Origin: Chara braunii
Lineage: Eukaryota > Plantae > Charophyceae
DNA length: 64,000 nt
Assembly: GCA_003427395.1 (NCBI GenBank)
Contig: BFEA01000025.1
Location: forward strand, 4,467,668 to 4,531,667
Reading direction: 5' to 3'
The notes beneath the pieces are model-generated. The model saw only the letters and a program-made list of their open reading frames with translations, was not told the origin of the DNA and made no database searches. Positions within the stretch are counted from its first letter, which is position 1; each line of letters starts with the position of its first letter. Positions 2,597 to 35,451 of this stretch are shown here, one piece after another. A program made the position numbers and the translations under genes.

Positions 2597-2628
2597 GTGA
2601 GTTGCTCGCTCGAAGGGACCTCGCTCTT

Positions 2629-2641
2629 GAGGGGGGGTAAC
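2629..2641 (+). promoter_or_regulatory. Polypurine tract preceding 3' LTR
   Basis: GAGGGGGGG-TAAC directly followed by TGTAATG at 2642, just after the pol end. Confidence 0.8.
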
Positions 2642-12556: not shown

Positions 12557-12629
12557 CATCATCATCATTAGTATGATCACAGTTTACATAGAATCAGTAG
12601 AAGTTCATCATCATCATTATTATCATGAT

Positions 12630-12769
12630 ATGAGGGACGTTGAGCCCGGTTCTCAGCAAGTTCGGTTCGGTCACTCAGGGTAGATTGTGAGGACCCCGGC
12701 CTCAATCTTCTTATTTGTAATATCCGCCTTGGGCACTGGGCCAAAAAAAAAAAAAAAAAAAAAAAAAAA
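12630..12769 (+). mobile_element. Short poly(A)-tailed retroposed fragment
   Basis: Long A run at ~12743-12769; no TSD identified. Confidence 0.4.
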
Positions 12770-13570: not shown

Positions 13571-13643
13571 TGCGGATTTGAACCCGCAATGTCATAACAC
13601 AATGCGCATTTCCAGTCGGTTCTCTAACCATTGAGCTAGTTCC
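13571..13643 (-). mobile_element. tRNA-derived SINE head
   Basis: Minus strand: A box TAGCTCAATGGTTAGAG and B box GGTTCAAATCC. Confidence 0.65.
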
Positions 13644-13714
13644 GGACATCGCCTCCATTACAGGACGGTGGACGCCATGTTGAGCACTTTGTTGACGGTC
13701 ACTCTTCGCTACAA

Positions 13715-13739
13715 GGAATGACTACAAACGTGCAATGCC
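13715..13739 (+). repeat. 25-bp flanking direct repeat (left copy, putative TSD)
   Basis: GGAATGACTACAAACGTGCAATGCC, identical to 35427-35451. Confidence 0.9.
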
Positions 13740-16517
13740 TGTGACGAACTACTTCCCGAACCTGTGCTATCTTTCGTACCCCTTTGATTTGAATTTCTCT
13801 TGTATCATACCGACCTTGCAAGCACCCCGTTTTGTTTTCCTGATTTCGAACGTCGCGTTTTGGGCCCCCATCTTCCGGAAGCTTGTGTGATTCGTCGGTT
13901 CTGGTTTTTCTTTTTGCAATTCGGGAAATGCATAGGAATTTACGCGCGCCTTAGCGAGCGCACTGGGAATCGGGCCCGGCAGTTGAAAATTCGGGATAAG
14001 CGGAACTTCGACGTGTGTGTGTGAATGTTCCCGGTTGCGTTGGGGAAAACTCTCAGAATTTTGTGAGAATACGAATAGGCGTAGGACTTTCTTTTCCCAC
14101 ATCGTCCCTTTCGCGCCCGGATATGGTGATTTCAATTTTGAATTTAGGACATAGGCAAGCTGTAACTGTTTCGGTGCCTTTTTCTTTTTCTTTTTGTTGA
14201 CGGCGCCACGCATACGAAGCTTTCTTCNNNNNNNNNNNNNNNNNNNNNNNNNNNNNNNNNNNNNNNNNNNNNNNNNNNNNNNNNNNNNNNNNNNNNNNNN
14301 NNNNNNNNNNNNNNNNNNNNNNNNNNNNNNNNNNNNNNNNNNNNNNNNNNNNNNNNNNNNNNNNNNNNNNNNNNNNNNNNNNNNNNNNNNNNNNNNNNNN
14401 NNNNNNNNNNNNNNNNNNNNNNNNNNNNNNNNNNNNNNNNNNNNNNNNNNNNNNNNNNNNNNNNNNNNNNNNNNNNNNNNNNNNNNNNNNNNNNNNNNNN
14501 NNNNNNNNNNNNNNNNNNNNNNNNNNNNNNNNNNNATAGGATCTGCCTATTGCGTGACGAATCTGATTGGCGAAGCTCAGAGTCCCGAAGAATCAACATG
14601 GCTTCCGTAGCGCGCTCCTCGCCAACTCTTCTCCTCTTGCTTTTTTTCTTACACCTCGATTTTCCCCCTGCCTTCTCTCTCCCTTGTCCCCCTTCTCGCC
14701 ACTATAAATTCCGCAAACGCGCCCGCAAATCTCTCTTACGTTCTCGACTGCCAAGCCAGCTTCCGGGAAGCAGTGGCCAGGCAAAGTGTTTTGTGCGAGT
14801 CGGAAAGTCCTGTCGGGCTGACGATAGGCTAGCCGGTTGCGCGCTTGATCACCACGACGGACTGTGGGATCCGGGCGAACCGCGTCGAGTTTACGTCGGC
14901 GGGGTGACGATCGCAGTGGTGGGAGTTGGTACGCGACGGCAAGGATTGTCGGTGCGGGTATGAGGATCGATGATTGGAGTTGAGTGGGTGATTGGTCCGG
15001 GGCCATATTGGAATTCACGGCGAATGCGCCTTTGTTGATTGTGGATCTTTATCTCTGGCGTGAGTGTACGGTGGCAATGCCGAACTTCCTCTTCTCGGAT
15101 CTTGTCATCTCCTATCTCTACTGCCCTCCCTCGTCTCTCTCTCTCTTCTATCTTTGAATGACGGTGTGTCTTGAAGCTTGTCCCTCTCATGAATGGGGGT
15201 GAAATTGTGTGCTCTCCCGTGTGAAGGAACTTCTTCCGGAACTCTTCCATTAGTTTCCTGGGTAATCCCCAGATGTCGAGGAGTTGGTCCTCTTGTCTTG
15301 TGAACGGTGGATGTGAGTGTACAACTCCCTCGGTTGATTTCTGGCCTGTGCACCCCTGCCATTTTCGCACCTTCCACAATGAATGCATGTGTGGAGATGC
15401 TTGCCTTTTTGGTGTTGATTAGACGCAACACTCGGCGGGATTTGTTCGAGAATGCAAGAGTGTTTAGATCTGTAGTTCTGAATGTACTGCGCATGCCATC
15501 TGCCTTATGCTGCAACACATCTGCCTTATGCTGCAAGACATCTGCCACCGATCCACGGGGCAACCCCGAGGAACAGGGCGCCTGGGATCAATGTCGTGGT
15601 AGCTTACTAAACCTGAGTCATGGGTCGGTCCCTCAGTTACATGCATGATCAGCTGATGAGTGCTTTCTCTCTCTCTCGTGTCGGAAAAAATTGATTGGTG
15701 GTTGTGCGAGTGTTTTTTTTTATGACGTCTCGGGATTTTTGTAATTGATTGACATGTGGACAGACCAACGCCCTTCGATCGAGCGTCATTCTCCCGTATC
15801 TCCCGCGTCAACGCGACCTTTTCCTAACGACGAGGAAAGGATACGTGTATGGGAGTGGGACGTACGAGAAGTTGTCGCACGGATCGGCGGACGCTATTAC
15901 TTCCCTCCGGAAAATCGTTGTTTAGGGTTCGTAGAGGCTGGGTTTGTCATTATCGATACACACTTTCCACCTTATTCGATATTGTTGCCATTTAACGAGT
16001 TGATCGTCATCCCGTGGGCGGCAGTAGAACCCCACTGGNCTNGCACTCTATGCACCGAGTGCCANCGCTTTGAGCGCTACGAATCCAAGGGTTTCCACTA
16101 CCGCGTACGGAGTGAAGACGAACACAGAGAAAGAGCCACACGACTAAGACCCTCCACGTCGGACTCAGAACTAACTGGTGAGCGACGTCGGGACTTAATA
16201 CGAAGACGAGACACGCGAAGCGTGCCGAAGCCTTTTCGCTCTAAACGAAGAACCGTAGCACGGTGGGAAGTCAGGCAATACTTTTTGGATTGAATTTATA
16301 TTTCTCCCTCCTTTCGCGCCGAACCCTTGCGCGCATTTTGCGACGTGCGAAAAACGGTCGACTTACTCCATCGGACCAACACGGGGGATTTCAGTTTTGT
16401 CTGTGTCCCCTCACTCAATTTCCAAAAATCCTTGGCACACCCCATCTTGCTGTTTTTCTGGGCCTCTTTTTCCGCACCTCTAGCACTCCGAACGAAAGAC
16501 AGCACAGGGCGTGAGGT
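13740..16517 (+). repeat. Left LTR (repeat A1)
   Basis: Near-identical to 32676-35415; begins TGTGACGAAC, ends GTGAGGT; TATA-like CTATAAAT at ~14702. Confidence 0.93.
15745..16293 (+). CDS. LTR-encoded ORF, unknown function
   Basis: 182-codon frame (first ATG 15754), conserved at protein level with 2964-3374. Confidence 0.6.
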   Translation: MIDMWTDQRPSIERHSPVSPASTRPFPNDEERIRVWEWDVREVVARIGGRYYFPPENRCLGFVEAGFVIIDTHFPPYSILLPFNELIVIPWAAVEPHWXXTLCTECXRFERYESKGFHYRVRSEDEHRERATRLRPSTSDSELTGERRRDLIRRRDTRSVPKPFRSKRRTVARWEVRQYFLD

Positions 16518-16530
16518 TGGTATCGGAGCC
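16518..16530 (+). promoter_or_regulatory. Primer-binding site for initiator tRNA-Met
   Basis: TGGTATCGGAGCC vs the plant consensus TGGTATCAGAGCC (one G:U pair), exactly abutting the end of the LTR repeat. Confidence 0.8.
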
Positions 16531-16611
16531 GACACGTGTCGGTTCTGATGATAGTAAGTCGAGCTGGCGAGAGGTAGAAGAAGTCCCCCACCTGCTCGCC
16601 GAGATCGTCCA

Positions 16612-16917
16612 GTGACCAGATCTATATCTGGTGCGGCTATACCAGCTATGCCAATGGTAGACGGTAACAGGGTGATGGTAAGCATTTCTGCCCCCTTCCC
16701 CTTCTTTCCTAACCATACCCACCCCGAAGCTTGGGCGGAAGCTGTCGAAGCTCAAGGATACAGCGCGGGTGATCTTCCCCGCGTTCTTACCTTGCTGCTT
16801 CGTAATACGGTGCATGACTGGTTGCCGCCTGATTTCGTGGATCGATTTCAGACCACGTTGGATAAATCTGGGCGAGATGAGAAATCCGCTCGAGATTTGT
16901 TCAACTTCTTTGATTGA
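16612..16917 (+). CDS. Short gag-like ORF (ATG 16648)
   Basis: HPEAWAEAVEAQGY..PRVLTLLLRNTVHDWL resembles the retrotransposon capsid N-terminal pattern; lies just after the PBS. Confidence 0.4.
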   Translation: MTRSISGAAIPAMPMVDGNRVMVSISAPFPFFPNHTHPEAWAEAVEAQGYSAGDLPRVLTLLLRNTVHDWLPPDFVDRFQTTLDKSGRDEKSARDLFNFFD

Positions 16918-17001
16918 TTGAAAGCAGATTGTGGGGTTGCATATGGGGGAAGGGTGGGAGAAAGACAGTATGGCATGAAGTTTGCCCGGGTCAACCAAAG
17001 G

Positions 17002-17760
17002 CTGGGCCAGTTCCATAAGTTTGGGAAGGCCCAGTGCTATGTTTATTTTGTATTGCCTGGAGAACCAGACAAATCCATAAGTTTGGGTGGTCTGGTTGCT
17101 CTGACTTGTGAGGGCTGAATGTGATTGCTTCTTCAGGCGCCAGTCAAATCCATAAGTTTGGGTGGTCTGGCGACCTTGTTTATTTGGGGTTTTTGACAGT
17201 TTCTTTGGTTTCTGAACGAGGAGGTGAGCATGTCCCATAAGTTTGGGTGGTTTTACCTCTTCCTGCTTTGGTCTAAGAGAAATAACCCAGACTGAGGACC
17301 AAGACATGTTTCATAAGTTTGGGTGGTCTTGGTCCAACGCCTCGCACATGCTAGAACCAGAAGGGTATAACTTTGATATACTTTACTACTACACTATCTA
17401 TGAACAGGCTAGTCAGGCAGGGTTCCATAAGTTTGGGTGGTCTGACTATAGCTTATCACTAACTGAAGAGAGTACTTAATTAAGAATAAACTTGTGGTAC
17501 AAAGGGGCAGGCTGAGTCTTGAGCTGAAGATGATCGGCTCAGCTATATGCTACCTCAAAGGACTAAGGGTAGACGAATTATATAAATCTTGGATACTTAA
17601 ACTGTTTAGGGCGACTAGGATGGCCTAGTCATAAGCCCAAAGAAGAGAAAAGTTGTTGTGCTCTGTGTTTGTGTATACTTCTTGGCTGGGCTAGACATGT
17701 TCCATAAGTTTGGATGGTCTAGCCTTATGCCCTAGGTAAGTTGGGTATAAGGGACAAATC
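17002..17760 (+). repeat. Array of 7-8 RNA hairpins with constant CCA-UAAGUU-UGG apex and variable stems
   Basis: Core at 17013, 17075, 17150, 17235, 17311, 17425, 17702, each flanked by its own inverted repeat. Confidence 0.85.
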
Positions 17761-18014
17761 ATTGAAAGGCTACGAACTATTGTTTGCTAAAGTAACTTGG
17801 GGATGGTGAGAGAGTGCATGTCTGTGGTTTGGCCTGCATGTGACTGAGTGATGCCACTTCTTAGTCTGAGTTTGGATTTTGATAGGTAGTTGTTGTAGTT
17901 TCTCGCCACGTGCTAGAGCCATAGGAGTTAGAGTCATTTCCTGCATTTTTTGGGCTCGTTTTTTTTTTACTTAGACATTTCTGCAGTTATCGGATCCTTT
18001 ATTTATACTTGGTC

Positions 18015-18560
18015 TTGTATAAATCTTGGTAAGCCACTTTCTCTACGGGAAGCGCTGCCGAAATTTCTACAAAATCAAGAAGTTAGTCAAAACTTTGACT
18101 TTTTCAGGATCCGGTCTTGATGACTTCTTTGACTTAGTAAGAATCTGGGGAGCCTCATTTTCTAAAGGAGGTGCTGCCCAAATTCTTACTAATTCAGGAA
18201 GTTAGCCAAAATTGGGCCTTGAAGGGTCAAAGTCATTGTCAGGTCCCAAACTTGGCCTTGTATAAATCTTGGACTAGCACTTTCCCTACGGGAAGCGCTG
18301 CCGAAATTTCTACAAAGCNAAGAGGTTGGTTGAGATTTCNTCGTGACAGGACTTAGACTTTATGTCTAAGTTCAAGTCTGACTTAGTATAGATCTGGGGG
18401 GCTTTCCTCTCTGAAGGAAATGCTACCCAAATTTTTGCTAGGTCAGGGAGTTTGACAAATTTTGACTTTTTGGGATCCAAAGTTTGACTTTTTAGACTAG
18501 TATATTTTCTGCGATGTCACTTTTCCTACGGGAGGCGCTGCCAAAATTTTCCTAAGTTAG
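18015..18560 (+). repeat. ~120-bp degenerate tandem repeat x5 (hairpin + CTGCCGAAATTT motif)
   Basis: Motif at 18055, 18174, 18298, 18423, 18538; two alternating variants. Confidence 0.8.
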
Positions 18561-18975
18561 AGGAGTTAGCCTATATTTGGACAAGTGACGACCTATGTAG
18601 GGGAGGCTACGGCGAGATCCACCTTACGCTGAGTGATATCTAGAGGTGGACCTAAACTTGGTTAGATATGATGGCTCCAGTAAGGTCAGGAGGTGAAGGT
18701 TACTCTCCCTGAGCGCGTAGACTTAGCTTGAGATTGGCCTGGCTTGTATCACAGGTCTCTTTTATCAAGTCGCTTCAGGACGTGGGATGGACTCAGCTTG
18801 ATCCTATTAGGATCACCTTCTGTTATCACAGATAACAGGTCGGTTGCCGACTCGTCGGTTACGACTCAACCTCAACCCACTCTCCTTACTCAACCTAAAG
18901 AGGCTTCAACCCTGGTGATCTTTTCTGTTTTGTTAAGGTTTCACCCGGACTTTTATTGAATGACCATTTAACAAA

Positions 18976-19111
18976 GGTACTGAGTATTTACTTAAGGTTG
19001 GTTGGCTGGAGGTTGGGGCTTGCATGGCTGAGGCAAAGGGTATNGTACTGAGTATTTACTTAAGGTTGGTTGGCTGGAGGTTGGGGCTTGCATGGCTGAG
19101 GCAAAGGGTAT
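18976..19111. repeat. 68-bp tandem duplication
   Basis: ggtactgagtatttacttaagg...gcaaagggtat x2. Confidence 0.9.
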
Positions 19112-20205
19112 GAGCATGGAGATTGGTTGGAGTTGACTCTGTGTAGTGTATGGACTTCTGCTTGACTCTTTGATGTGATTGCAGGTATGTTCTGTGACTG
19201 GGATTATTGGATTGGACTGCCCTGCGATCTTATATATGTGCATGAGGAGACCCACTGTGATTGTGAGATGTGATCGTCACACGTTTATTCCCATGTGTGC
19301 TTATATGTGCATAATGCGTACCTATGTGGGATACTTGCGTGGCCTGAAGAACCCGCATATTGAGGGCTTAATTGGGAATAGGGAGCTAGCAGAAGAGGAA
19401 TGACCCCTCTATTTATATATACGCTTCTGAGGAAATTGTGGTCGGACGTTAGCCCTGAGCCTAGAATACGAAGGTCCTCGCCCAGGACGACCCAGGTCCC
19501 AGGACTAGCTCTGAAAAGGTCCACTTCCGATAAAAGTCGAAGGTACTTTCCTTGTTGGGATTTGTTTTGGTGGAACGATAAAGTTCCAGGCGGAAGGGTC
19601 AGCGTGTCGTTGGGGATACGCCAGACAACTGACCACCGCTTCAAATCCCTTCCTGCCCTAGGGACCGTCTTACCCCGCACCCTTTGGGATACCTCAGGGT
19701 GCAGAAGGCGGTAAAGCCCTCAGGCCGGTTTTGCGCCCGCTAAAGGGTTACCCCCCCCCCGTAGCGCGCACTTCAGCCGACGCCTGAGCATCGGAAGCAA
19801 CCGCATGACTCAGAATAGGCCATTTGGGTATGGGCACCACATAATGCGCCGTCATCGCAGTTACTCACGTAGAGCTGCATAGTGAATTGGTATGCGTGGA
19901 TCCTACGTTCGAGCGATCTTATACTAAACCTCGCGTACGGCAGTTACCGACTTCCACTGCGCAAAGTCATGGGTTGGATACTAAGGGGCTAGGAGTGTGT
20001 CGCGTTGTACGTCCTTTGCGTCGTTCAGTACTTGTGTGCATGTGTGCGTGTGCTTTACTTTTATGTACCTTATAGTGGTGTGCGCGTGGCGTGTGGGATA
20101 CGTCCTAGTCGACCGGCGACGAGCCGCGCTTGGNACNTCAGCCCCCCCAGATGTCGGTTCGCGTGCGGGTCCGATAGAGGCGTAGTACCGCGCGTACCCC
20201 TTATG

Positions 20206-23200
20206 CTACAGCGAACGAGAAACGCCCTCGGCTGGTCCACCTCTGCGATTGCAACTGATCAGCTTTCGTACTGTGGACTGGTAGCTCGGCGGGGATACGC
20301 CCACCGAAGGGAGGTGACAGCTCCCGTAAGATGGAGGTAGTCGTGCCTCGCGTAGGCCCTGTCCTGTCATAGGGGCTCGCGAGAGGTATGGCTGGCGCAC
20401 CCGGCCGGAGCGGCTTATGGAGGCTCCGTGTGTGTACCACAACGAGATGTGTACTCTGACTCCTGCGTGACGCGACCGGGAGGGTCCCGCGCTACCTCTG
20501 AGTGGTGTCGAGCCAATGCGCTCGACATCGGGACGACCCTTTTCGTTAATTCGGTATACCTTTTGGCCTTGGACTTGAGGGCGGCACACGTGTCTCTGCC
20601 CCCTGCTTCGGCAATTTCCGAGTTACCCCGGTAGTCGATACAGGGGAGGTTATTAGTGCGAAGCTGAAAGGGGGTGAACCCCGTGGACTCATGAGGGGTG
20701 GCCCGATGGATTCCGACGATCTGGTACACGATCTCGGGCCACGGACGCGTGTCATGTGCCGCTAAATTCTTGCGAAGGGCGGTTTTAATCATATGGTTGG
20801 CATTTTCGGCCAATCCGTTCAACTGAGACACATGGGGTGCCGTATGTCGGAGCGTGATGCCCCTTCGCTCGAGCAGTTCCTCTACTTCGCCTTTGAATTC
20901 AAACCCATTGTCAGTCAGAATCTCTTCCGTATCTAGATGGGTATAGAGGAACCGATCAATGTACGTGGCTATTTCTGCGGCCTTGCGGGTCTTGCAGGGG
21001 TAGACTTAGATGTACTTGGAAAAATGATCTCTTAATACTAAAAGGATGAATATTCACAGCGGTTTGGGCCTGGTGGCACGTTAATATCTGTTGTGTCCAT
21101 ACTGACTCGCTGGAAGGGGTGTTCTACTTCCGTAGGTACTATCGTGTTCGATCCCCGTATTGGGGCGCGATCCGCAGCACAGACCAGACAGTTGGCGACA
21201 ACGTATTTAACATCATCTCGTATATTGGACCAGAACCATCGGTTCTGGTCTATAGTTGCCTCCGTGACACGTATCGCGAAATGAGCGGCCTGCTCTTCGT
21301 GAGCAGATCGGGTCCAATCATATCTCTGAAATGGATGAGGGACTGTCAGCCACGAACCCGATCCGGCTTCTCCAAATGACTGTTGATCCATCGATAGTCC
21401 CGAGATCTCTCGGTAGCCCTACGTCTGTCGTGTTTGGTGAGGTGTCCCAATGATAATCCCACTAATTTAGCTAATAAAATTTTATCCGTCCAAACCTCCG
21501 CTCGTCAGTATTTCTCGTCATATTCAGGTCCGTCCGTTCGGGCGGCCTCGAATCGAACCTTTGTGGCCCTGTGGGGAGTTTGGTCGTTCTACACAGAGGA
21601 CACCTCCATTCCTTGCTACTTGTCCGATAGCGAACGCAGGCCCCGTGCGCACGATTGACATACGTGGCATATTCTACCCAATCGACAAACTCGGTTTCGA
21701 AAGGATGACAGTCAACCCCATAAGCCCGTGCAATATATGTTCAAAAATAGCAGAATTTGTCGGGGAGGGTGGCAAAGAAAGTGGAGGAGGTGAGAGGGGC
21801 AGAATTAGTAGGAGAATAGGGGTCGCAGAGACGGGTGGGCTAGTCATGATGGCAGAAAGGGAGAGATGAGACTGAATTGTCGAGGGGGGGCAGAACAAAG
21901 AGTGGGCCCCGTGTCACTTACTCCTTCGACAGGATCTCCACCTGGCCGTATAGAGGTCCGTTCTCCTTCTTCGGTTCGTTCCACGGAATCACCTCCTCAT
22001 TCCTTGGAACCTTCTCAGGTCGGTGCAGTCGTGTCAATCCGTCCGCGTTCCCGTGCCTTTCGTGTTTCCGATGACGAATGTCAAAGTCCATGCTCTGCAG
22101 CACCGTTGCCCATCACCCGATCATGCCCGAGTAATCCTTAGATTTCTTCAGGGCTAGCAGAGGCTCATGATCAGTTACCAATGTGAACTTTCGCCCGTAC
22201 AAGTAAGCTCGGAAGTGACTGATTTCCCAAAGAGCCGCGTAGCATTCTCCTGTTGGAGCGGCGTAGTTACGCTTGCAGGTGGGCACCGATTTGGACGCAT
22301 ACTCTACTACGCACTCAAGTCCGCTTGGTCCCACCTGGGCCAGGATCGCCGAAATTGCCTCTGGCTGCCAGTCAGTAATGAGGACAAAAGGTTTTTCGGG
22401 ATCCGGCCTTATAAGGACTGGGGCCGAAATGAGGGCGGCCTTGAGTTCCGAAAACGCTCGATCACACTCCGGCGTCAGATCAACGGCTGGTCCTTTCGCA
22501 GCAGATTTGTGAGGGGTCCCGCAATCGCCGCGAAGCCCTTGATGAACCTTCGGTAGTACGAGGCCAGGCCCAAAAAGGCGCGAACTTGCGTGATAATCGT
22601 AGGCACCGGCGCATCTCTTACAGTTGCCACCTTCTGCGGCTCCGACCTGAGTCCTTGGTCTGTCACCACGTGTCCCAAGAAGGAAATGGTGGTAAGGAAA
22701 AACTGGCACTTCTCGAACGCCACCTTGAAACACGCATCTCGTAACGCATGCAGTGCCCATTCGATGTGTTGCACGTGCCCTTCGTAGGAACTCGAGTACA
22801 CCAGAATGTCATCCATGTATACGATCACGCAGTAGTTCATGATACTCTGCGCCAAACGAGTCTTCCGCACGAAATTCTGGAAGGCCATGTTCATGGCTCG
22901 CTGGAAAGTTGCGGGAGCATTGCAGATGCCCATCGGACATCGAATCCACTGCCACGTAGCTTCGAAGAGTACGAACGCCGTCTTCGGGCGATCTTCTTCT
23001 CGAACGAGAAGATGATGGAACCCATGGCGAACGTCAAACTTGCTGAAAAATCGATCACTCCCAATCGCATCCAACAACTTGTCAATCCGGGCGAGAGGGT
23101 ATACATCCTTGATCGTGATATCATTCAACTTTCGATAATCGATGCAAATGCGAATACCTCCGGCCTTTTTAGGCACAATCACTACGGGGAAAGACCATGG

Positions 23201-25191
23201 TCCTACAACGGGGTCGATCCATCCATTAGCTTCAAATTCTTTGATCTGCTGAAAAGCGGCCGCTCTTTGAGCTAGTGAGTACCTATAAGGAACGCAGCTA
23301 ATGGGTGGATGGTCCCCCGTGAGAATGACATGTTCAATCACGTTAGTTAGGCCGATATCATTATCGCGCACACTCAATACCTCTACGTAGCCATTCAAAA
23401 CATTAATTAGCGATTTTGGAGTTCAGTAGGGACGTGGTTTGGGAGGGAGATTGTCGGTCGTCCAAGGATCTGAAGAGATATGTCGACCCAATCAACCGGC
23501 CTTTCCCGTCGCTCATGGACACTGGAAAAAACGGAGCTACTGGTGCGAACAGAGAAGACAATCGCAATCATCTGTGATTCAGCAGGGCTGATCGTTTCGG
23601 TTTCCTTGGCTTCAGCATCAGTCTCTGAACCGGCCGATGTTTTTTCCACAGTTAGTCTTGTTAGATCCGCCATCTCCTGCATCAGATCGGGTACATCGCC
23701 TACCGGTGCTCCGGCCTCTTGTTTAATCAAAGCGATGGTCGCTCCCACTGTTAGCAAAGATCTAGGTGGGAAAACAGAAACATCCACATATTATTATATT
23801 TGTTGGTAGCGTGCTCGTAAGGAAAGCGCTCCCTCGTACAAGGTGCAAGGGGGTTCCAAATCATCTGCTAGGTTAGATACTTGCAGGATGGGTTCTCCGA
23901 GGAGGGTTGAAGGACTGATCCGGGTTTCCAGCGGCGCGAGCGTGCCGTCTTCGGAACCCACGTGGAAGCTTCGGGCGGTTCTGGGGCACACTCAAAATTC
24001 TTCGGGAATTTTGTGCTCGAAAAGTTCGACCAGGTGCTTTCATTCATCCTCACTAGGCATTTCTTCTTCGTACACCTGTTCCCCGACTCCGCTACTAATG
24101 TCCGAGGAAGAAGGTTCCTCAGGATCGAGGCCTTGAATCATCCCTACTTGGGCACAGTGAGGAGTTCGTTTTACCGTCTGGGTGGAAATCCGCAAAGGAA
24201 CAGTCTGAGGCTTTCCCCCAGTTTGCGTGAGTACCAGCTGTTTGGAGTCGAAATGCAGACGAGCACCTACCGCCATCGCCCAAGGTAATCCTAACAACAC
24301 AGAATAGGAGCGCACATTTATTACTAGTGCATTAACAAGGATATGTACTCGTCCGACCTTCACAACCACATTCTCAAGAATACCTACGATGTTCATTGCT
24401 TCCTCGTCGGCAGAGACATAATTGTCTTTGCCAGATTGAGGGAGAATGGATCCGAGTCGTCCTGTCTTTCTTACTGTGTCTAAGGATCTGGCCACTGCAG
24501 AAGACCCAGTATCGATAAGGGCATTAAACGGTTTGCCCCAAATTTCACAATCACACTCAGCGCTTTTCCACAACACCGGTCGAGCTCGCACGAAGTGATC
24601 CCTCTCTACCAACGAAATCGCAGCTACTCGTGCTGCTTCGGGTTCACCCGTTTCAGGTTCAGGTGGTGTAACCTCCTCGCCTCCTTCCTTCTTCTTCAAC
24701 ATTCATTGTACTCACTGGTACGTGAAGCATTTTTTATTTTTCTGGCAATGTTGCAGGAGCTTATCGTTTGCAGCTTCGGAGATGGTGAGCAAATGCCCTA
24801 CCGAGATCGGAACACGGATATCCAGCTGCTTAAGCGTTCGTAATACATCAATTTCTCCCGTCTGAAACTGCAGACCGGGATTGGATTTGCGATCGACCCA
24901 TTCAAAATCATCATGGGCCAATCGGATCGCTCCGACCATGCCGGCGAGATGAAGATACTCGAGTGGATCGACCACGTCGGCAACGTCAGAGGAGGAAGAA
25001 GCTCCCGAGGTGGAAGAGGCTGCTGTTGAGGGGGAGGGTTGCTCATATGCAACAAGTTCCCCACCTTGGGCCGTGTCCATCAGTGCGGCCACTCGTCCTT
25101 GGTTCAGAGCTACTGCATTCTTTTGCTTTGTCTTATTATGTCCTGAATAGAAAGCAAGCTTTATAGGGATAGGCAGACATACATCAATCAA
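20206..25191 (-). pseudogene. pol: Degenerate Ty3/Gypsy protease-RT-RNase H-integrase; most of gag absent
   Basis: LIDTGS (PR 24040-24702), RICIDYRKLN..YMDD (RT 22475-23398), ITDW..TDHEPL (RH), H..H/C..C zinc finger and NGLAE..TGFTPF (IN); stops and frameshifts. Confidence 0.95.
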
Positions 25192-28100
25192 CTATAGGGG
25201 GATATGCAAACATGGGTGTAGTGGGAGTATATAGACAGAAAGAAGTTACCTGATGGTTCCCTGCCTCCAGATACTCGCCTAGGTTCCGGCAGAGCTCCCG
25301 CAATCGGTGGGAGGACTCCCCACAGAGTCTTGTTGCGGTCCTACGGGTTGCAATCCCGCCTGCCGCCTTCCCCTCGTAACCAATTGACTAGACTTGGAGT
25401 AAGAAAGGCAGATAGAGAAGGTTTAGAGACTCTTAGAGGGGTGCACTCAGACTCGCGTGAACCCAACCCCCTGACGATCCCCTAATTCGCAGCACTAGGC
25501 CCCTATTTGTCCGGTCCGATCACCTCTCCAAGTCTTGATACCTCCCCTCAGTCCAATCGCGGCCGCCTAGCAGCCTCTAACAGACCATGATAGCCAGCGG
25601 CAGTGTGCAGCAGCATACAGCGGTCAATGGCAAACAGCAGCAGCTAACCGCAACAGCAGATTGTACACAGCCCCTAGATGCAGCAGCTTGCAGCGGCGGC
25701 TAGCAGCGGCTCGCCCATAGTCAACAGTTAGCAGCAATCTGCAGCCACATGCCGTAACTAGCCACCGCAGCCCGCACGCAGCAGCAGTACCCCGTCACGA
25801 GGGAGAACAGTAGCGGTGCACAGCAGTAGTGCACAGCGAGGGACTGCGCCCTGCCACACGGGGTGTACAACAGTTCGGTATCGCAGACGTTCACCAGGGA
25901 CACGGCAACGTACAGCAGCAAGGCATGGCAAGGCGCTCAATAAGGTACATCACAGGTGGCGACCCCCTTCCAAGAGCCAACTTCGTCGGTCACAGCATCT
26001 GACCACCGGTGGTCAAGGGGGACCTGACAACCNCTCCCCAAATCGTAGCAACANCNGTCTGTGCCCGCCAGCATATGCCCTTAGCGCTGAGGACTGGCNT
26101 CCGTGTCGTAGAACAGCCCGAATCACTGTAACAGGCTGCTTCTCATCTCAGTCGTACTAGCAACTCCCAGTCCCTCACTCCAATACCAGGCNACTACCAT
26201 GCTGCAGCCCAGCAACAACAACTCACAGATTTGTAGCAGCAGCGNTAGCCAGCAGCCTCCCTTGCAGCCTGGTCACTTTCCTNATACTACACCTTCGCTG
26301 CCCAATATGAGGCTGCAGCCCTGCCGTCCAAACAGTCATCGTACTCAGAACAGNGCAGCGGCCTGCTCNAGCCCANCGTCCGCTGCTACAGAGAATACAG
26401 TCACAACGAGTAGCCTGGCACGCAATAGAGCTGCAAAAAGGCGTCACCNCANCCAGGGTGTACAGTGAACCGCCGCAGTGGCCCAGGCTCAGTGAGACAG
26501 TGCAACAGCTCTCGAGGGAAAACAGCATCCGGATGCCTGGGAGACACAGTTTCTTCACGGGCCCATAGCGAAAATACTGTAGTGACTGTGCTCAGTCATT
26601 AACCGCTGTACACAACGAGGTCCAGCCACACCTGCCAATGGTGAAACCCATCCAGGGCTGTACAGACCCACTACAGTATACCAGCAACCGACTCCCTCAC
26701 GCCGCTGTCAATGGCCAGACACGTACTACAACCGTTTAAACTAGGGGCTTACACAATCTACAGGTAAGCTGTCTGAATACCTTTTTCTACCACCTCTATT
26801 GACCCGCAGTATTAGTTGTAGGACAAGCCCAATAGCAAACAAAAAGTGTTTCAACAGCAAGCAGTAAGTGCAACAGCGACCGGATTATATACATATATTA
26901 GCTGTGTAGACTCCGATTAAGCTCCCTACCGAATCTGTAGGCTACATCAGATTCGCCTCACGGGTACGGCCAGGTGCACTCTCCTGGAACCCACAATTTT
27001 AAGATCAGGCTGAGGACGGCCAGCACCAGACTCCTGACCTCCCAAAGTAACCGCTCAACTACCGCAGGGTGTTGGCTCAGTGGTAGCAATACAACTCGGG
27101 TCCGGACCCGCAGTCCCCAGCACCAGCCTGTCGGCAAGAACAACCCCTCCTAGTGGTCTCCTGGCCAACAGAAGGCGCAACAGCAACTGAAAATATAGTA
27201 GCAATGCAGCAGCGCACGGGAGTGGCCTTGAAATACAGGGTGACACCAGCCCTCCCTTACCACAGCAACAGCAACCTGCCGGTCACCACCGTCTGAGAAC
27301 TCAGCAACAGCACCCAAGCTACATCAGTGCCATACCCCAAACCACCGGCACTAGCTCCTTTATTGTAAAAACTAGCAACGAACACTTTCCAGGCACAACA
27401 GCCAAAGAAGTTGTTCCAACTCCCACACCCGNTCACCAATCCCAGTAGCTTAAGCCCATAGCAACTGCCTGGCGTAGTAGCCTATAGTAACGGCAGCGCC
27501 AGACCGAGAGTGCACTGCAGTAAGTGCAGCAAACAGCGATCGCTGTCCAACAGCCAGCAGTGTGGGATGGAAATAGCCAATCGTCGTTGGAACTGTGGGC
27601 TCAACGATGTGCACAGTGACCTACAACGGGATTCGTCAACCACTCGTGTACAGCAAACATGTATGGCAACCACAGCCACGCCCCGTGCTCAGCAAAGTGT
27701 ACCAGAAGCGCAATAAGGCTGACACCTTGATTTAGCAGCAAAAACACAGTAGATGCTGCCTGTGGCTTGCTGTCTTGTCCGTTTCCTATTCATGTACCTT
27801 GTAGTAGCCCGCAGTCACCTGAATGCACCTGGCCATCAACCTAGCCAGGTTCAGCCGGAATCAGTGAAGACGACCACCCTGATGGAGCAGAGCACCCCTA
27901 CGTCGAACAGCCATTGATTATAGGCAGCGCGGGGGCTATTCACGACGTCCTCCCGCTACAACACCTTGATAGCCAGCCGACCATAGCCATGATGGCGAAG
28001 GCTGTGACGACTTTATCAATAAGCATGATGCCAATGTTGGTGAGGGAGACCAGTGGCCACCTCTGCAGCGGTGACCCACACAGCGACAACGATGCCAGTA

Positions 28101-29286
28101 CTTGCTACAACAGTCAGGGCCATAAGCCGTTGGAAAAACGAGTATGAATCTCCCGCTAGAATGCGAAAAGGTACACACTCCTCATATCTTATTTTCTCCC
28201 ACGCAGCCCTCCATCATCGTGACGCCCCATCTGTTACTCACGGCCCCGAACGGACGTCGCCATCACACCCGCAAAGCCCCAAAACCCCTGTTTAGAATCC
28301 TCCCTCGCTCGATTTCGTCAAGGAACGAGCGAGATATGTACTTTTCCATTCCCCTTCTTCTTCACCTCTTCCACCTCCGCGCAGCTACTTTCCCTCCTAC
28401 CTCCCCACACAGCACTCTATCGCACAAACTAACTGCACAATCTGACTCGCCCTACCAAAAAAGCCTCAATCTAGTACTTGACTTCGCTCGGTTCCGGTAA
28501 GAGTTGAGTGAGATCTCTAATTTTTCACTCCTCCCTTAGCCCGTTCTCCATACCTCCTCGCACGTCTTTTCCTTCGTATCTTCTATCCCCTCACTTCTTC
28601 CTCCCTTCTGACTTCACCGCTGAGTTCGCCCGGGCCAAGACGTAGGAAATGAGCCTTCATTTGCTCATTTCCATCAAGGAACGACGATTCACAACCATAC
28701 TCATCCTCTTCCCGTCGCTGCTTCCACCATCNCCCGCCCTGAACGCATGGAGACGCTGAAANGGACCGGATTCATTTCTCTTCTTTCCTTTCTTACTAAC
28801 CTCCTTATTTCTGTTCCCCGCCTACCTCATCTTGTTCTTAGCTACTAACCCCTTTCCATGCCCCTTCTTTCACTCGTCTTGCTCGTGCTCCCTTCGTCAT
28901 TGCCTGCGTCGAATGTCTCCTCTCTCTCCGAACGCACCTGGNGGGGNTTCACGTCCAGGTTCGGTCGGTTGTCGCTGGCCTCTAATACTCTGCCGCTGCG
29001 CCCAGTCTCCAGCCTGCTTCTCCCTTATAGTGCATGCACCCGGTACAACTCCGGGTCCGGATTCATAATCACCTCCATATCGCCCTGCTATTCTGCCTCG
29101 CTTCTCTCTCCTTCCCGCAACTAGGCACAGCGCCTCGTAGCCATAGCCCGATCGTGCCTAGTGCAGTTCAACAATCAGGCTCATCCTCTCCCCTTCTCTC
29201 CCCAACAGCGCAGGGCCCGATGGTCTGCCCGGTCGGGAGAGGTGCGTAGCGATCGGCAGCTCACCGTGCCGCACCAAGCCCGGGTG

Positions 29287-29378
29287 TTGGCTTACTCCCC
29301 GACTTTATACGTGTTATCCTAGCACAGGGGCCATGCTAAACTTCTCTGTATCGTCCCAATGTTACCGGATGTCCCGAC
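29287..29378 (-). ncRNA. Diverged U6 snRNA-like sequence inside the LTR element
   Basis: Minus strand GGGACATCCGGTAACATTGGGACGATACAGAGAAGTTTAGCATGGCCCCTGTGCTAGGATAACACGTATAAA; ACAGAGA box and AGC triad intact; no oligo-T terminator. Confidence 0.85.
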
Positions 29379-30754
29379 TGGTGCAGTGTCTGTATTCCCT
29401 CAGTTCAGTGGTGTATCCACTAAATGAGGCTGTTGGCCCTCACGGCCGGCCCCATACGAAAAAAAAACGAAAGAGTAATAATAATAATTAAATAACAAAG
29501 AAAAAAATAAAAATAGGAACCTAAAAAAATCAAAAACAAAAAAACGGTTGAGGGGGAGGAGGACTGCTCTCACTTGGCACTTGGTCCCCGGTCCTGCCTA
29601 CCGGGCCCACTGTCGAACTCCCCAACAAAACTGAGGGGGATAGTCCTGCAGGACCCTCAACCCCTCAGCTCTTCAACACTCCAATGCTCCTGCATTGCCG
29701 CCCATTGGCCTCGATCCCCGTATTTTCGTTGTAACAGTCCAACATTGTAACCTACAGGGCTAAGCCCAAGCCTAGTATTGGTAAGCGCGTTACTCCATAT
29801 GAACAGGTGCGGCGCAGCCCCCAGGCCTCATTCCTGCCTTCCATTAGGCACGCTACCGCTAGGCTCCTACGCCGGCTTGCCCCCCTTGCGCCGTGGCCGC
29901 CCCGCACCCTACTTCGCACGTTAGACTACCAACGGTCTACCAAGGGCACCTCTTATTCCTAGTAGCCAGAGTCAGGCCGACCAACTATGCCGGTTGCATA
30001 ATCCAAAGTAGAAAAATCACACGCGCGCCTTAATCCCGCGCGCCCACACCAGCTCCACTCTAACCAAGCAACTTACCCATGTTACCAAACAGACGGAGCC
30101 GCGTCTCGCACGGTACACTTTAGACCTCTACCCGTACTTCCGGTCACTTGCAAAGGCAAGGGCGGATACCCTTGTCAGGGTATTCGCGCCGACACCGAAG
30201 CTAGCCCGAAAAAGACAGAGGATGACCGATCTGGCTCACGGTAGGCAGGTCCGTAGCTATGAGGCTCGAAATGGAAATGATGGGCCCCAACATCAATATA
30301 AATTAGGGGACCTAGTGCAGCCACGTGGCCACATCTCGGAAATTCGGCAAGTTCGTCATCCACGGCTTAGTACGGATCTTCGGCGTCTGGCGCAGTTCTT
30401 CTGCGACGTGGGTGTGTGTGCAGCTGCCGCGTTTCGATTCGAAGGGAGTCGGCAGGCAGTAGTATTGGCGAAGGTGGTAGCGGTTCATCGGCGAGCGGTT
30501 CCCGGAACGAGCCACGTCACCACGATCGCGACTTTCAGCGGCGACATTAGTACGATCAGCCCACTGTGGCATACCGCGATCTTGACCTCGCTGCGAGCGT
30601 GGACGGAGCAGGTGTCCAACGTATGGCAGCACGGTCTTGCCCGACCAAGGCACAATCTCATCCCGACCTTTGCACCTGATCTTGACGGGGTCCGTCTCTC
30701 TCCGCGCGAGCCAGCGGTCGCGATCCCCACCCCCGTTGCTTTCCCACGCCCCCG

Positions 30755-31741
30755 ATGAACCCCGCCGCCCTCCTCGCCCCTCTCTCCATCTTCGGCCTAC
30801 CCTCTCTTTTCCCTACCTTCTGGCAGTCCGATCTTCATCCTCATCTCTCCCTCTCGATTGAACCCCTTTCCGACCCGCTTCTTAATCCCGGGCATTGGCG
30901 ACTCTGGCGTGAGACCTTTGTTGAGTTGTCCATGTGCTTGGCTCAAGTACGGGTGACGTGGACGCAGACCAGCGAGCATCCGGCGTGGCTCGAAAATCTG
31001 GAACTGCTGATCATACAAGCTTGGAGGACTAACGTGGAGGGTGATCTCCTCGGCTTTCTCTTCGGATCGGTGCGGTCGGGACATCGTCAACTAATTGCTC
31101 AAGAACTCATCGTGCCGATCGTGCAACTGGCGGACGATCTCTCTCCTCACATCGTTTCGCAAAGCGACGACAGCCCCGCTCCGCACATACTCACGCGAAC
31201 GTTGGATCCGTATCTTCAGTGGAGTGCATGCTTGGAAGAGCCTGGGGACGAAGCCTCTCTACCATCGCGGCAGGAGTATCTGAAGCCATACGGCATTATC
31301 AATCACGCTTTCTATCCGAAGGCGGAGGAGGTAGTGATAGAAGAAGAGGGAAGTGACAACGACGGGGAAACATCGGAAGAGGGAAGCTATAGCGAGTATA
31401 GCGAGGGCGAGCAGAGCGAAGAAGAAGAAGAAGAAGAGGAAGAGGAAACAGGGTCTGAGTGGGAAGCCTTGCCGGAGGAAGCGACGCGTACTGGCACGGA
31501 GGCAGAAGATCCTGAGGCAGCACGCAAGCGAGAAGAAATTGCCACCGGGAAACGCCAGCTAGAGTTCGCCAGCGGAGCACGCCTGCACATCGGTGACGAT
31601 CCGACCAGGGATCCGGAGCCGCCGAAGCCCGAAGATGGCGACCCAGCAGCCACCACCCCAAGCACCTCACGGCGGAGATGGAGCCGATCCTCCTCCCCCT
31701 CCGGCCCCACCAGTTCGTCCACGTACCGATGCGGGGGATAG
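30755..31741 (+). CDS. 328-aa accessory ORF with acidic tract, unknown function
   Basis: Uninterrupted ATG-initiated ORF with a globular-looking N half (LIIQAWRTNVEGDLLGFLFG) and poly-E region, ~0.9 kb before the right LTR. Confidence 0.6.
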   Translation: MNPAALLAPLSIFGLPSLFPTFWQSDLHPHLSLSIEPLSDPLLNPGHWRLWRETFVELSMCLAQVRVTWTQTSEHPAWLENLELLIIQAWRTNVEGDLLGFLFGSVRSGHRQLIAQELIVPIVQLADDLSPHIVSQSDDSPAPHILTRTLDPYLQWSACLEEPGDEASLPSRQEYLKPYGIINHAFYPKAEEVVIEEEGSDNDGETSEEGSYSEYSEGEQSEEEEEEEEEETGSEWEALPEEATRTGTEAEDPEAARKREEIATGKRQLEFASGARLHIGDDPTRDPEPPKPEDGDPAATTPSTSRRRWSRSSSPSGPTSSSTYRCGG

Positions 31742-32662
31742 GCCTTCGTCCCCGGACATTATCCCGCCGCCCCCTTGATTACCTCACCCTCGAGCAGATC
31801 CACACCCCCGTCACCTTCCCCCGCCACCCCTTCCATCCCCATCTCTTCCGTGATCTCTACTCTACGCGCCTAATCGCTACCGTATACCCTCACCGCTCCC
31901 TTCAGCCCGCTGCCCCCACGTTCTGTCTACACATCCTGTTGTTCAGCGCTGCGTGGGAGCAGTGCAATGTAGTAGAAGTCTACTGTGTGGCCACGGGAAC
32001 GATCCCCGTTTGTCGCCACTACGATTTCTTTCACGCCTAGCTCTTTCGCACCCTCTCCTCCCTCTACCGCGACTACCTCGCCTCTCTCCCTCATAGCAGC
32101 GATCGCTTCGCTCGTTTTCACCGGATCATTCGCTATGGGGAACTTCCAGTGACAGTAGAAGAATTGAATCGCTACCTACCTCCACTTCCTCCCCGACGTC
32201 CCTGTGGATTTCCCTCCATGTACCGTCTCTACTGGCCCATTCCAATAAGGCGGTAAAACCCAATCGCATGACTATTCCCTCCTCCCCCCCCACCCCCCCT
32301 CTCTTCCTCCCTTCTCCCAATTAACAAGGGAAAAACGGCACGAATCAGCAAGCTTCGCGAAGATCACGCCATCGACGATGACGTCAACCTACGCTCTGAT
32401 TCGACGGACTGCGACGAGCCGGGGTGCAGAGCACACGGAGAACCAGCGGACGATGATGGCGTCACCTGGACGACCTCCGACGATTCCAACTGNACGAGCC
32501 AGTAGACTCACGAAGAGATTGCAATTGAAGTTGGCGTCAACATGAACTCTGGCTCGATTATCTGCTGATACACTTGGTTCCTCATGCATCACTCTTCCCC
32601 CCCTCCTCCTTCCTTCTCCGCCGTGACATACAATCAGGAGAACGCATAATTTTGGAACCCCC

Positions 32663-32682
32663 TGCGCGTCACATATGTGACG
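32663..32682. other. Internal end-to-end junction palindrome (B1-TA-A2)
   Basis: TGCGCGTCACA-TA-TGTGACG; 16-bp perfect palindrome CGTCACATATGTGACG. Confidence 0.9.
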
Positions 32683-35426
32683 AACTACTTCCCGAACCTG
32701 TGCTATCTTTCGTACCCCTTTGATTTGAATTTCTTTTGTATCATACCGACCTTGCAAGCACCCTGTTTTGTTTTCCTGATTTCGAATGCCGCGTTTTTGG
32801 GCCCCCATCTTCCGGAAGCTTGTGTGATTCTTCGGTTCTGCTTTTTCTTTTTGCAATTCGGGAAATGCATAGGAATTTACGCGCGCCTTAGCGAGCGCAT
32901 TGGGAATTGGGCCCGGCAGTTGGAAATTCCAGGATAAGCGGAACTTCGACGTGTCCTTTTTGTGTGTGAATGTTCCCGGTTGCGTTGGGGAAAACTCTCG
33001 GAATTTTGTGAGAATACGAATAGGCGTAGGACTTTCTTTTCCCACATCGTCCCTTTCGCGCGCGGATATGGTGATTTCAATTTTGAATTTAGGACATAGG
33101 CAAGCTGTAACTGTTTCGGTGCCTTTTTCTTTTTCTTTTTGTTGACGGCGCCACGCATACGAAGCTTTCTTCTCCCCCCCCCCCCNCCCTGTTTCCCGCA
33201 TCGTTCTCTCCCGCGCCCTTTTCCCCTTTTCATCCTCCCTTCTCGCAACTGTTTTCTCTCTCTCTCTCTCCCGCTCTGATCGGTTGCGCGCCCATTTCCC
33301 TTTCTTGATCATCTGAATCTTGGACCCGTCTTGCGCTACTTCTCGCGCCCTTTTTCCTTTCGCCTTCCGAACGTGAATCGGAAGCCCNGTCGATCCTTCG
33401 ATCACTCTCGCCCACCAATCAGACGAGTGGTACGATAGGATCTGCCTATTGCGTGACGAATCTGATTGGCGAAGCTCAGAGTCCCGAAGAATCAACATGG
33501 CTTCCGTAGCGCGCTCCTCGCCAACTCTTCTCCTCTTGCTTTTTTTCTTACACCTCGATTTTCCCCCTGCCTTCTCTCTCCCTTGTCCCCCTTCTCGCCA
33601 CTATAAATTTCGCAAACGCGCCCGCAAATCTCTCTTACGTTCTCGACTNCCAAGCCAGCTTNCGGGAAGCAGTGGCCAGGNANAGTGTTTTGTGCGAGTC
33701 GGANAGTCCTGTCGGGCTGACGATAGGCTNNCCGGTTGCGCGCTTGATCACCACGANGGACTGTGGGATCCGGGCGAACCGCGTCGAGTTTACGTCGGCG
33801 GGGTGACGATCGCAGTGGTGGGAGTTNNNACGCGNCGGCANGGATNGTNGGTGCGGGTATGAGGATCGATGATTGGAGTTGAGTGGGTGATTGGNCCGGG
33901 GCCATATTGGAATTCACGGCGAATGCGCCTTTGTTGATTGNGGATCTTTATCTCTGGCGTGAGTGTACGGNGGCAANGCCGAACTTCCTCTTCTCGGATC
34001 TTGTCATCTCCTATCTCTACTGCCCTCCCTCGTCTCTCTCTCTCTTCTATCTTTGAATGACGGTGTGTCTTGAAGCTTGTCCCTCTCATGAATGGGGGTG
34101 AAATTGTGTGCTCTCCCGTGTGAAGGAACTTCTTCCGGAACTCTTCCATTAGTTTCCTGGGTAATCCCCAGATGTCGAGGAGTTGGTCCTCTTGTCTTGT
34201 GAACGGTGGATGTGAGTGTACAACTCCCTCGGTTGATTTCTGGCCTGTGCACCCCTGCCATTTTCGCACCTTCCACAATGAATGCATGTGTGGAGATGCT
34301 TGCCTTTTTGGTGTTGATTAGACGCAACACTCGGCGGGATTTGTTCGAGAATGCAAGAGTGTTTAGATCTGTAGTTCTGAATGTACTGCGCATGCCATCT
34401 GCCTTATGCTGCAACACATCTGCCTTATGCTGCAAGACATCTGCCACCGATCCACGGGGCAACCCCGAGGAACAGGGCGCCTGGGATCAATGTCGTGGTA
34501 GCTTACTAAACCTGAGTCATGGGTCGGTCCCTCAGTTACATGCATGATCAGCTGATGAGTGCTTTCTCTCTCTCTCGTGTCGGAAAAAATTGATTGGTGG
34601 TTGTGCGAGTGTTTTTTTTTATGACGTCTCGGGATTTTTGTAATTGATTGACATGTGGACAGACCAACGCCCTTCGATCGAGCGTCATTCTCCCGTATCT
34701 CCCGCGTCAACGCGACCTTTTCCTAACGACGAGGAAAGGATACGTGTATGGGAGTGGGACGTACGAGAAGTTGTCGCACGGATCGGCGGACGCTATTACT
34801 TCCCTCCGGAAAATCGTTGTTTAGGGTTCGTAGAGGCTGGGTTTGTCATTATCGATACACACTTTCCACCTTATTCGATATTGTTGCCATTTAACGAGTT
34901 GATCGTCATCCCGTGGGCGGCAGTAGAACCCCACTGGNCTNGCACTCTATGCACCGAGTGCCANCGCTTTGAGCGCTACGAATCCAAGGGTTTCCACTAC
35001 CGCGTACGGAGTGAAGACGAACACAGAGAAAGAGCCACACGACTAAGACCCTCCACGTCGGACTCANAACTAACTGGNGAGCGACGTCGGGACTTAATAC
35101 GAAGACGAGACACGCGAAGCGTGCCGAAGCCTTTTCGCTCTAAACGAAGAACCGTAGCACGGTGGGAAGTCAGGCAATACTTTTGGATTGAATTCGTATT
35201 TCTCCCTCCTTTCGCGCTGAACCCTCGCGCGCATTTTGCGATGTGCGAAAAACGGTCGACTTACTCCATCGAACCAACACTGGGGATTTCAGTTCTGTCT
35301 GTGTCCCCACACTCAATTTCCAAAAATCCTTGGCACACCCCATCTTGCTGTTTTTCTGGGGCTCTTTTTCGGCACCTCTAGCACCCCGAACAAAAGACAG
35401 CACAGGCCGTGAGGTTGCGCGTCACA
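32676..35426 (+). repeat. Right LTR (A2) plus 11-bp terminal B2 segment
   Basis: Matches 13740-16517 through GAGGT (35415), then TGCGCGTCACA (35416-35426). Confidence 0.93.
34644..35381 (+). CDS. Second copy of the LTR-encoded ORF
   Basis: Essentially identical to 15745-16293 until a 1-nt indel near its end. Confidence 0.55.
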   Translation: MIDMWTDQRPSIERHSPVSPASTRPFPNDEERIRVWEWDVREVVARIGGRYYFPPENRCLGFVEAGFVIIDTHFPPYSILLPFNELIVIPWAAVEPHWXXTLCTECXRFERYESKGFHYRVRSEDEHRERATRLRPSTSDSXLTXERRRDLIRRRDTRSVPKPFRSKRRTVARWEVRQYFWIEFVFLPPFALNPRAHFAMCEKRSTYSIEPTLGISVLSVSPHSISKNPWHTPSCCFSGALFRHL

Positions 35427-35451
35427 GGAATGACTACAAACGTGCAATGCC
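35427..35451 (+). repeat. 25-bp flanking direct repeat (right copy)
   Basis: Identical to 13715-13739. Confidence 0.9.

Follow-up and report, generated by a model that had tools for sequence, protein, structure and literature searches.

A Ty3/gypsy retrotransposon of Chara braunii with split terminal repeats and an internal end-to-end junction that may serve as an integrase site

How can a retrotransposon whose tRNA primer site lies directly beside its left repeat carry two copies of a sequence that this repeat lacks? The question is raised by an element at positions 13740–35426 of a 64-kb stretch of Chara braunii DNA (contig BFEA01000025.1), the whole of which is called the window below. The original prediction had described the element as a succession of A, primer-binding site, internal region, B, TA, A and B; this layout was confirmed, and every junction matches that description. 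The features that define it are as follows.

13715–13739, no strand: left copy of a 25-bp target duplication, an exact match to 35427–35451
13740–16517, plus strand: repeat A1, which begins with TGTGACG and ends in GAGGT without CA; an assembly gap (14228–14535) lies inside it
16518–16530, plus strand: 13-nt primer-binding site, TGGTATCGGAGCC, abutting A1 with zero spacer
32663–32673, plus strand: B1, 11 nt, from sequence comparison
32667–32682, no strand: palindrome CGTCACA-TA-TGTGACG with 7-bp arms, the putative integrase site
32676–35415, plus strand: repeat A2, from sequence comparison
35416–35426, plus strand: B2, 11 nt, which supplies the CA end of the element
35427–35451, no strand: right copy of the 25-bp target duplication, an exact match to 13715–13739

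The sequence of B is TGCGCGTCACA, and its sole occurrences in the window are at 32663 and 35416. With the tRNA primer site immediately next to A1, the left repeat offers reverse transcription no B to copy, although the element has two. The GAGGT end of A1 runs directly into the primer site. On the outside, the element is bounded by TG...CA and 7-bp inverted repeats, and these two ends also meet inside it across the internal TA (32674–32675). The identity of B1 with B2 extends over exactly 11 nt, and that of A1 with A2 continues past GAGGT for 2 nt only (TG); the two breakpoints thus coincide within the TG that is common to B and the primer site. As three CA/TG-centred inverted repeats with arms of at least 7 bp were found in the window, the palindrome by itself is not rare, and it is its position that matters. 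The absence of a polypurine tract ahead of B1, also part of the original prediction, was borne out: purines make up 6 of the 15 bases before B1 and 6 of the 15 before A2, and no purine run of 9 or more was detected on the plus strand between 32400 and 32675. The exact 25-bp duplication at both outer flanks, which had been overlooked, indicates that the whole 21.7 kb is one insertion.

These junctions may be explained if the family integrates from end-joined complementary DNA (cDNA) that its DDE integrase opens at the palindrome CGTCACA-TA-TGTGACG, a reading drawn from the sequence that we regard as probable, if only just. An initiator tRNA-Met would prime the minus strand at the site abutting A1, making GAGGT the right end of the cDNA, and the plus strand would begin at or upstream of B1 without a purine tract, making B-TA-A the doubled unit. 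The GAGGT end would then be joined to the start of B, probably via the TG shared by the primer site and B, either by host end-joining or by a jump of reverse transcriptase (RT). Integrase would cut after each CA across the TA, yielding two CA-3′ ends, and the molecule would be inserted in the arrangement seen here, from A and the primer site through to B, TA, A and B. The assignment of TGGTATCGGAGCC to initiator tRNA-Met is based on the plant consensus. Self-priming of the Tf1 type on the minus strand was rejected, the best complement in the repeat being only 8 nt long.

The coincidence of both breakpoints within the shared TG favours integration from end-joined cDNA, as do the recurrence of the two outer ends across the internal TA, the lack of a purine tract, the deep contig coverage of the B-TA-A block described below, and the coding content, in which an integrase is recognizable and neither a tyrosine recombinase nor an HUH enzyme was found among 68 frames and 22 family gene models. 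In vitro, a junction palindrome in which two bases separate CA from TG is a substrate that foamy virus integrase cuts (PMC1180852), and the HIV-1 circles that contain two long terminal repeats (LTRs) form a reserve that can feed integration (PMC4372172). The circle model of the original prediction reproduces every junction but leaves the 25-bp target duplication unexplained. A broader form of our reading, in which one of the largest retrotransposon families of Chara always circularises its cDNA via the tRNA-derived TG overlap, opens a built-in palindrome with its DDE integrase and has dropped the purine tract and equal LTRs altogether, is a serious possibility that we stop short of calling probable.

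An identical integrated sequence would arise from linear cDNA, with no closed circle, if the B-TA-A block acted as a splint or template on which RT adds B-TA to the right end and integrase trimmed the linear ends. An internal complementary region has been proposed as a splint or template in DIRS-1, which needs its internal junction copy and yet accumulates linear single-stranded cDNA (PMC7192593), and the B-TA-A block is the deepest part of the stretch to which contigs were mapped (see below). Here too, the left end could be released only by cleavage of the internal palindrome, so that the route differs from the circle in topology only; we consider it unlikely.

The doubled B also allows another explanation, namely that the family is an ordinary one with two LTRs, each composed of A plus B, with B-TA taking over the priming of the plus strand from a purine tract, and that this one copy lost its left B by a TG-to-TG deletion. 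A2 and B2 together do form a normal TG...CA LTR, the copy is old and rearranged (by an inversion, loss of gag sequence and a nested insertion), a deletion from TG to TG is plausible, and the left junction is known from this copy only. Such a deletion would nevertheless have to begin exactly at the end of the identity between B1 and B2, and B1 would have to stay identical to B2 over 11 nt, 4 beyond the need of the palindrome, although it is not copied from B2. The same layout has moreover been published for a Gypsy element of another charophyte (PMC5890265). We consider this explanation quite unlikely.

Whether the B-TA-A junction is a feature of the family was judged from contigs of two DNA runs mapped to 31250–33648 in 30 bins. 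The bin over B1-TA-A (32610–32689) was the deepest of the 30 in both runs, at 88,333 and 112,218, and the most deeply covered block of the mapped stretch is the following.

32650–32682, plus strand: TTTTGGAACCCCC, B1, TA and TGTGACG, from contig depth

The long pieces listed (16 of 12,680) have depths of 8–24, the depth 21 bases upstream of B1 is approximately 5,800–6,000 times the median long-piece depth, and contigs beginning only at the repeat would account for 7–9% of the deepest bin. Loose ends were found in X1 before 32647 (13 contigs) and before 32652 (38 contigs), which suggests that other subfamilies possess the same block but different upstream sequence. Nine RNA reads join the repeat start of another copy to an unrelated flank. 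The depth in both DNA runs marks the B-TA-A junction without a purine tract as a feature of the family, and we consider it very likely that the lack of such a tract and the presence of the internal palindrome are traits of the family. The primer site is followed at 16531–16544 by a palindromic motif, ACACGTGT, which another subfamily carries ahead of its junction block (loose end before 32647 in X1). A possible second LTR end (32622–32630) was considered and dropped, as position 32630 differs in nearly all of the family depth. When metagenome contigs were scanned for the junction pattern, the single match lay inside a bacterial permease-like gene; it shows no similarity to the window and is attributed to chance.

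Plant LTR elements generate duplications of 4–6 bp (PMC6317226), and the element nested in the present one made 4 bp; none of the explanations considered here, including the opened circle, accounts well for 25 bp. The long duplication is probably the product of a one-off, aberrant one-ended insertion that was completed by host repair, and we are doubtful that it is a trait of the family. Aberrant long duplications that result from one-ended insertion are known from retroviral work. A literature search for aberrant long target duplications yielded no precedent. A short duplication combined with an older tandem repeat at the flanks was rejected, since the sole exact suffix–prefix overlap found is 25 bp long. 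TGCC ends both left flanks seen for the family (13736–13739 and an X6 loose end before 32676), which, with two cases, is only a hint of a target preference. At approximately 13565–13645 on the minus strand, starting some 70–95 bp from the insertion site, there is a sequence that resembles a tRNA and seems to have both an A box and a B box; it was called by neither ARAGORN nor Rfam, and the search of the window for tRNA genes found none.

The coding content identifies the element as a Ty3/gypsy retrotransposon. Protease, RT, RNase H and integrase domains follow one another in Ty3/gypsy order along an inverted segment (Pfam), the homolog P0157 is collinear with them, and a 13-nt tRNA primer site (tRNA identity from the plant consensus) lies beside the 5′ repeat, as in other members of this group. 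The pol frames carry stops and frameshifts. The coding and inserted segments, with two features of the left end, are listed below.

15745–16290, plus strand: open frame within repeat A (A2 counterpart from 34644 on), 62% amino acid identity over 113 residues to a related repeat at 2967–3305
16522–16549, no strand: imperfect inverted repeat of 28 nt, 86% self-complementary, foldable over the primer-binding site into a predicted hairpin
16558–17008, plus strand: 5′ remnant of gag, cut off near 17008; matches the family model P0130 (E 2.6e-9, in another frame) and weakly the gag region of P0133 (E 0.022), with no Pfam hit of its own
17009–20527, minus strand: first part of a nested element, starting with TGTCG, within the inverted segment
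20528–21441, minus strand: disrupted zinc finger and DDE core of integrase, within the inverted segment (PF17921, E 6e-08; PF00665, E 0.026), 52–65% identical to P0157
21921–23422, minus strand: RT and RNase H, frameshifted, in the inverted segment (PF00078, E 2.4e-31; PF17919, E 1.2e-25)
24043–25113, minus strand: terminal part of gag with aspartic protease, within the inverted segment (PF13975, E 7.3e-05); family models align from 25113
25116–30194, plus strand: last part of the nested element, ending with CGACA; a 4-bp duplication, CCGA, lies on both sides of the nested element
30195–30755, plus strand: C-terminal region of integrase in the normal orientation of the family; P0157 continues from the integrase core into this stretch
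30686–31738, plus strand: extra frame that ends in an acidic tail and is often included in family gene models

The integrase core is 52% identical to that of P0157, which itself contains PF00665 (E 1.2e-09), and the HHCC and D, D, E motifs are kept despite the broken frames. Domains were searched in 68 frames of at least 85 residues and in 22 selected family gene models. No tyrosine recombinase was present in either set, in agreement with the original prediction, or among the precomputed domains of the 240 listed RT homologs; a DDE integrase was detected. The two sets likewise contained no HUH, chromodomain or methyltransferase family; no chromodomain follows the integrase, as it would in a chromovirus, and the neighbouring element has one at 2144–2593. 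The closest RT homologs are Chara braunii gene models with at most 90% identity across the whole query (240 listed homologs). An RT tree of 47 rows, comprising the window sequence and 46 of the 240 homologs and rooted at the midpoint without an outgroup, placed the element in a Chara-only clade of 11 rows (support 100/100, long stem), apart from a group with Lolium and Tanacetum sequences; the tree covers chosen homologs and includes no named reference lineages. For the extra frame, no Pfam family was found at E 0.01, and its low-confidence structural model (mean pLDDT 46.8) gave no fold match at E 0.001. The frame in repeat A has no Pfam family either, and its best Atlas score is 0.78; the Atlas scores obtained (0.83 and 0.78) are leads only. 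Amino acid identity between the repeat-A frame and the related repeat is about equal to nucleotide identity, a hint of selection on a gene borne by the repeat.

As split direct repeats of the same order are found in Ngaro, PAT and VIPER elements (PMC6681497), the element might instead be served in trans by a tyrosine recombinase or HUH enzyme of DIRS or Ngaro elements, with B-TA-A as the circle junction. Chara braunii does contain DIRS and Ngaro elements (10.1101/835561), and the integrase core is absent from the close gene models of the family (0/63). The ends, however, are the TG...CA ends of integrase products, the flanks show a long duplication instead of the TA core expected of a recombinase crossover, and the element encodes a DDE integrase, with no such recombinase or HUH enzyme found in 68 frames and 22 family gene models. 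We consider mobilization of this kind most improbable.

In this copy, pol lies on the minus strand, opposite to the primer site, a point that had escaped the original prediction. A minus-strand orientation of the whole element was rejected, because from RT 48 of the 63 close gene models (RT identity of at least 84%) proceed into the plus-strand frames at 30–32 kb, and none of the 240 homologs matches those frames on the other strand. Overall, the same frames are matched by 94 of the 240 homologs, downstream of RT in 93. On a single strand, P0130 connects the gag remnant with RT and the 31-kb frame. P0157 spans from the minus-strand integrase core to the plus strand at 30195. RNA run X6, with its internal bins summed, gave 16 reads with the first mate on the plus strand versus 108 with the first mate on the minus strand, a bias that fits plus-strand RNA provided that the library follows the usual stranded protocol; the reads were matched at 85% likeness and are thus from the family and not from this copy. 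Gene-model collinearity together with this bias upheld the plus strand as the sense strand of the family, and the minus-strand pol is a property of this copy. The segment from approximately 17009 to 25113 has been inverted, part of gag has been lost, and integrase is split by the nested element with its TG...CA ends and CCGA duplication. With pol inverted and integrase split, the copy is dead. The CCGA of the nested element (20528–20531, minus strand; 30195–30198, plus strand) fits the NCGN preference reported for moss Phygy elements. A near-complete sequence resembling U6 small nuclear RNA lies inside the nested element at 29283–29390 on the minus strand (Rfam RF00026, 55 bits, E 1.3e-11). 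At least six dispersed copies of a motif of roughly 20 bp (CCATAAGTTTGGGTGG type) occur in 17009–17720, beside the inversion breakpoint.

The inversion and the state of the repeats raise the question of whether the locus was assembled correctly. Near the repeat ends, 26 of 724 positions distinguish A1 from A2 (3.6%), but just one of 1721 does so in the middle (Fisher p 2.6e-13). Three Ns stand at matching places in both, and A1 holds a gap of 308 Ns (14228–14535). The near-identical middles with matching Ns beside ends that differ by 3.6%, the gap in A1 and the internal inversion would all fit a mis-join of different family copies. The outer flanks, however, share the matching 25-bp duplication, and the B-TA-A block is deep in read-derived contigs. 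The junction of A1 with the primer site lies in gap-free sequence whose 14 substitutions relative to A2 show that it is not a copy of A2. As the junction regions are gap-free and differ between copies, the junction types are unlikely to be artefacts, although the inversion could be one. A mis-join could account for the inversion but not for the junction types, and we consider it very unlikely as the origin of the layout.

Several points weigh against integration from an opened circle. End-joining, the circle and cleavage of the palindrome are all deduced from sequence, and a title cited in PMC1180852 reports that foamy virus integrase fails to integrate a junction-bearing circle. The 25-bp duplication is inconsistent with concerted action of integrase. 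The integrase core was present in none of the 63 close family gene models; since the RNase H frame of this copy stops before integrase, gene predictors may skip the integrase, or alternatively many copies may lack it. The middles of the repeats were probably filled from one collapsed repeat, or else gene-converted. The family seems to hold thousands of copies, summed depth not being equivalent to copy number, and both DNA runs come from one study, possibly the source of the assembly. Bridging of the B-TA-A junction is deduced by depth arithmetic, as no single piece of the 16 listed (of 12,680) extends across it. The junctions of A with the primer site and of A and B with the flank, as well as the length of the duplication, were seen in this copy only, and protein searches across the former junction found nothing (0 of 2084 candidates and 0 among 240 fetched proteins).

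Other elements are present in the window upstream of this insertion. Positions 1–2641 (plus strand) and 2642 onward hold a chromovirus-type pol that is broken and includes a chromodomain, together with a normal purine tract and a repeat beginning with TGTAATG; CATTACA at 13656 matches that repeat start. A relative of repeat A, 59–78% identical, lies at 2967–5125 on the minus strand, in reverse orientation after the purine tract of the chromovirus-type neighbour. Either it is nested there, or two families use a related repeat in opposite directions. A search for the ends of the related repeat at 2.9–5.3 kb gave 7 candidate duplications among 765 pairs versus 3 expected. A decayed element resembling a long interspersed nuclear element, judged by eye, extends over approximately 5290–12770 on the plus strand and ends in a poly-A run.

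LTR circles are usually held to be dead ends (PMC4372172). If the opened-circle reading is true, the use of such circles by integrase would become testable with one integrase and one 16-bp site, in a natural family of thousands of copies whose integrated form would be rebuildable only by end joining and internal palindrome cutting; the family would also offer a route of plus-strand priming without a purine tract. Under the broader form of the reading, circle-junction integration would be the normal route of a successful charophyte, perhaps also moss, LTR lineage, with long target duplications as a possible signature. Programs that recognize LTR elements by equal TG...CA repeats and a short duplication would overlook such elements or classify them wrongly, so that their share of charophyte genomes may be under-counted.

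Compared with known systems, the element has the enzymes of Ty3/gypsy elements but departs from the canonical LTR plan in three features: it lacks equal TG...CA LTRs (A1 being without B, in this copy), it lacks a polypurine tract before the 3′ LTR, and its target duplication is 25 bp (in this copy) instead of 4–6 bp. It shares with plant Ty3/gypsy elements (Neumann et al. 2019, PMC6317226) the order gag, protease, RT, RNase H and integrase, a tRNA-Met primer site, TG...CA ends, an extra frame before the 3′ repeat and a size of about 20 kb. Unlike them, it has unequal terminal repeats and, in this copy, the long duplication, and it carries a second copy of its right end where they have a purine tract; its RT belongs to the Chara-only clade outside the group with Lolium and Tanacetum sequences.

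In foamy virus and HIV-1, a two-base CA/TG palindrome is cut on both strands to give two processed ends (PMC1180852, PMC4372172), as would happen here. There, the junction occurs only in circles and the provirus has equal LTRs, whereas here the junction is fixed in the integrated element; even for these two viruses, the route from junction circles to integration is disputed.

The resemblance to the split direct repeats of Ngaro and PAT elements, pointed out in the original prediction, holds. Ngaro, PAT-like and VIPER elements (PMC6681497, PMC7192593) share the order A1, internal region, B1, A2 and B2 with an internal end-to-end junction copy. They encode a tyrosine recombinase, whereas the enzymes of the present element include a DDE integrase and a protease, and it has a tRNA primer site. 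Its B is just 11 nt long, and TA separates B1 from A2. Because the defining recombinase is absent, the element is not a member of that order.

The literature search found no description of the Chara family or of the mechanism; the Chara genome paper (Nishiyama et al. 2018), which lay outside this search, may describe the family, and the available part of preprint 10.64898/2026.05.21.726589 contains nothing on the layout. The closest published counterpart is KnitGypsy-Dnmt3 of Klebsormidium nitens, in which Gypsy domains are combined with DIRS-type repeats in the order A, coding region, B, A and B, given in a figure legend without a mechanism (de Mendoza et al. 2018, PMC5890265). In the accessible text of that paper, no palindrome, primer site or duplication length is given, and none of the 240 listed RT homologs is a Klebsormidium sequence. 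The Dnmt3 domain in the pol of KnitGypsy-Dnmt3 has no counterpart here, where no methyltransferase family was found. By the published description, both are charophyte algal elements with Gypsy domains and the same order of repeats, and the layout is less new than the original prediction supposed. The split-repeat Gypsy layout thus has one published precedent, without a mechanism, and the Chara element is a variant of it and not a new category.

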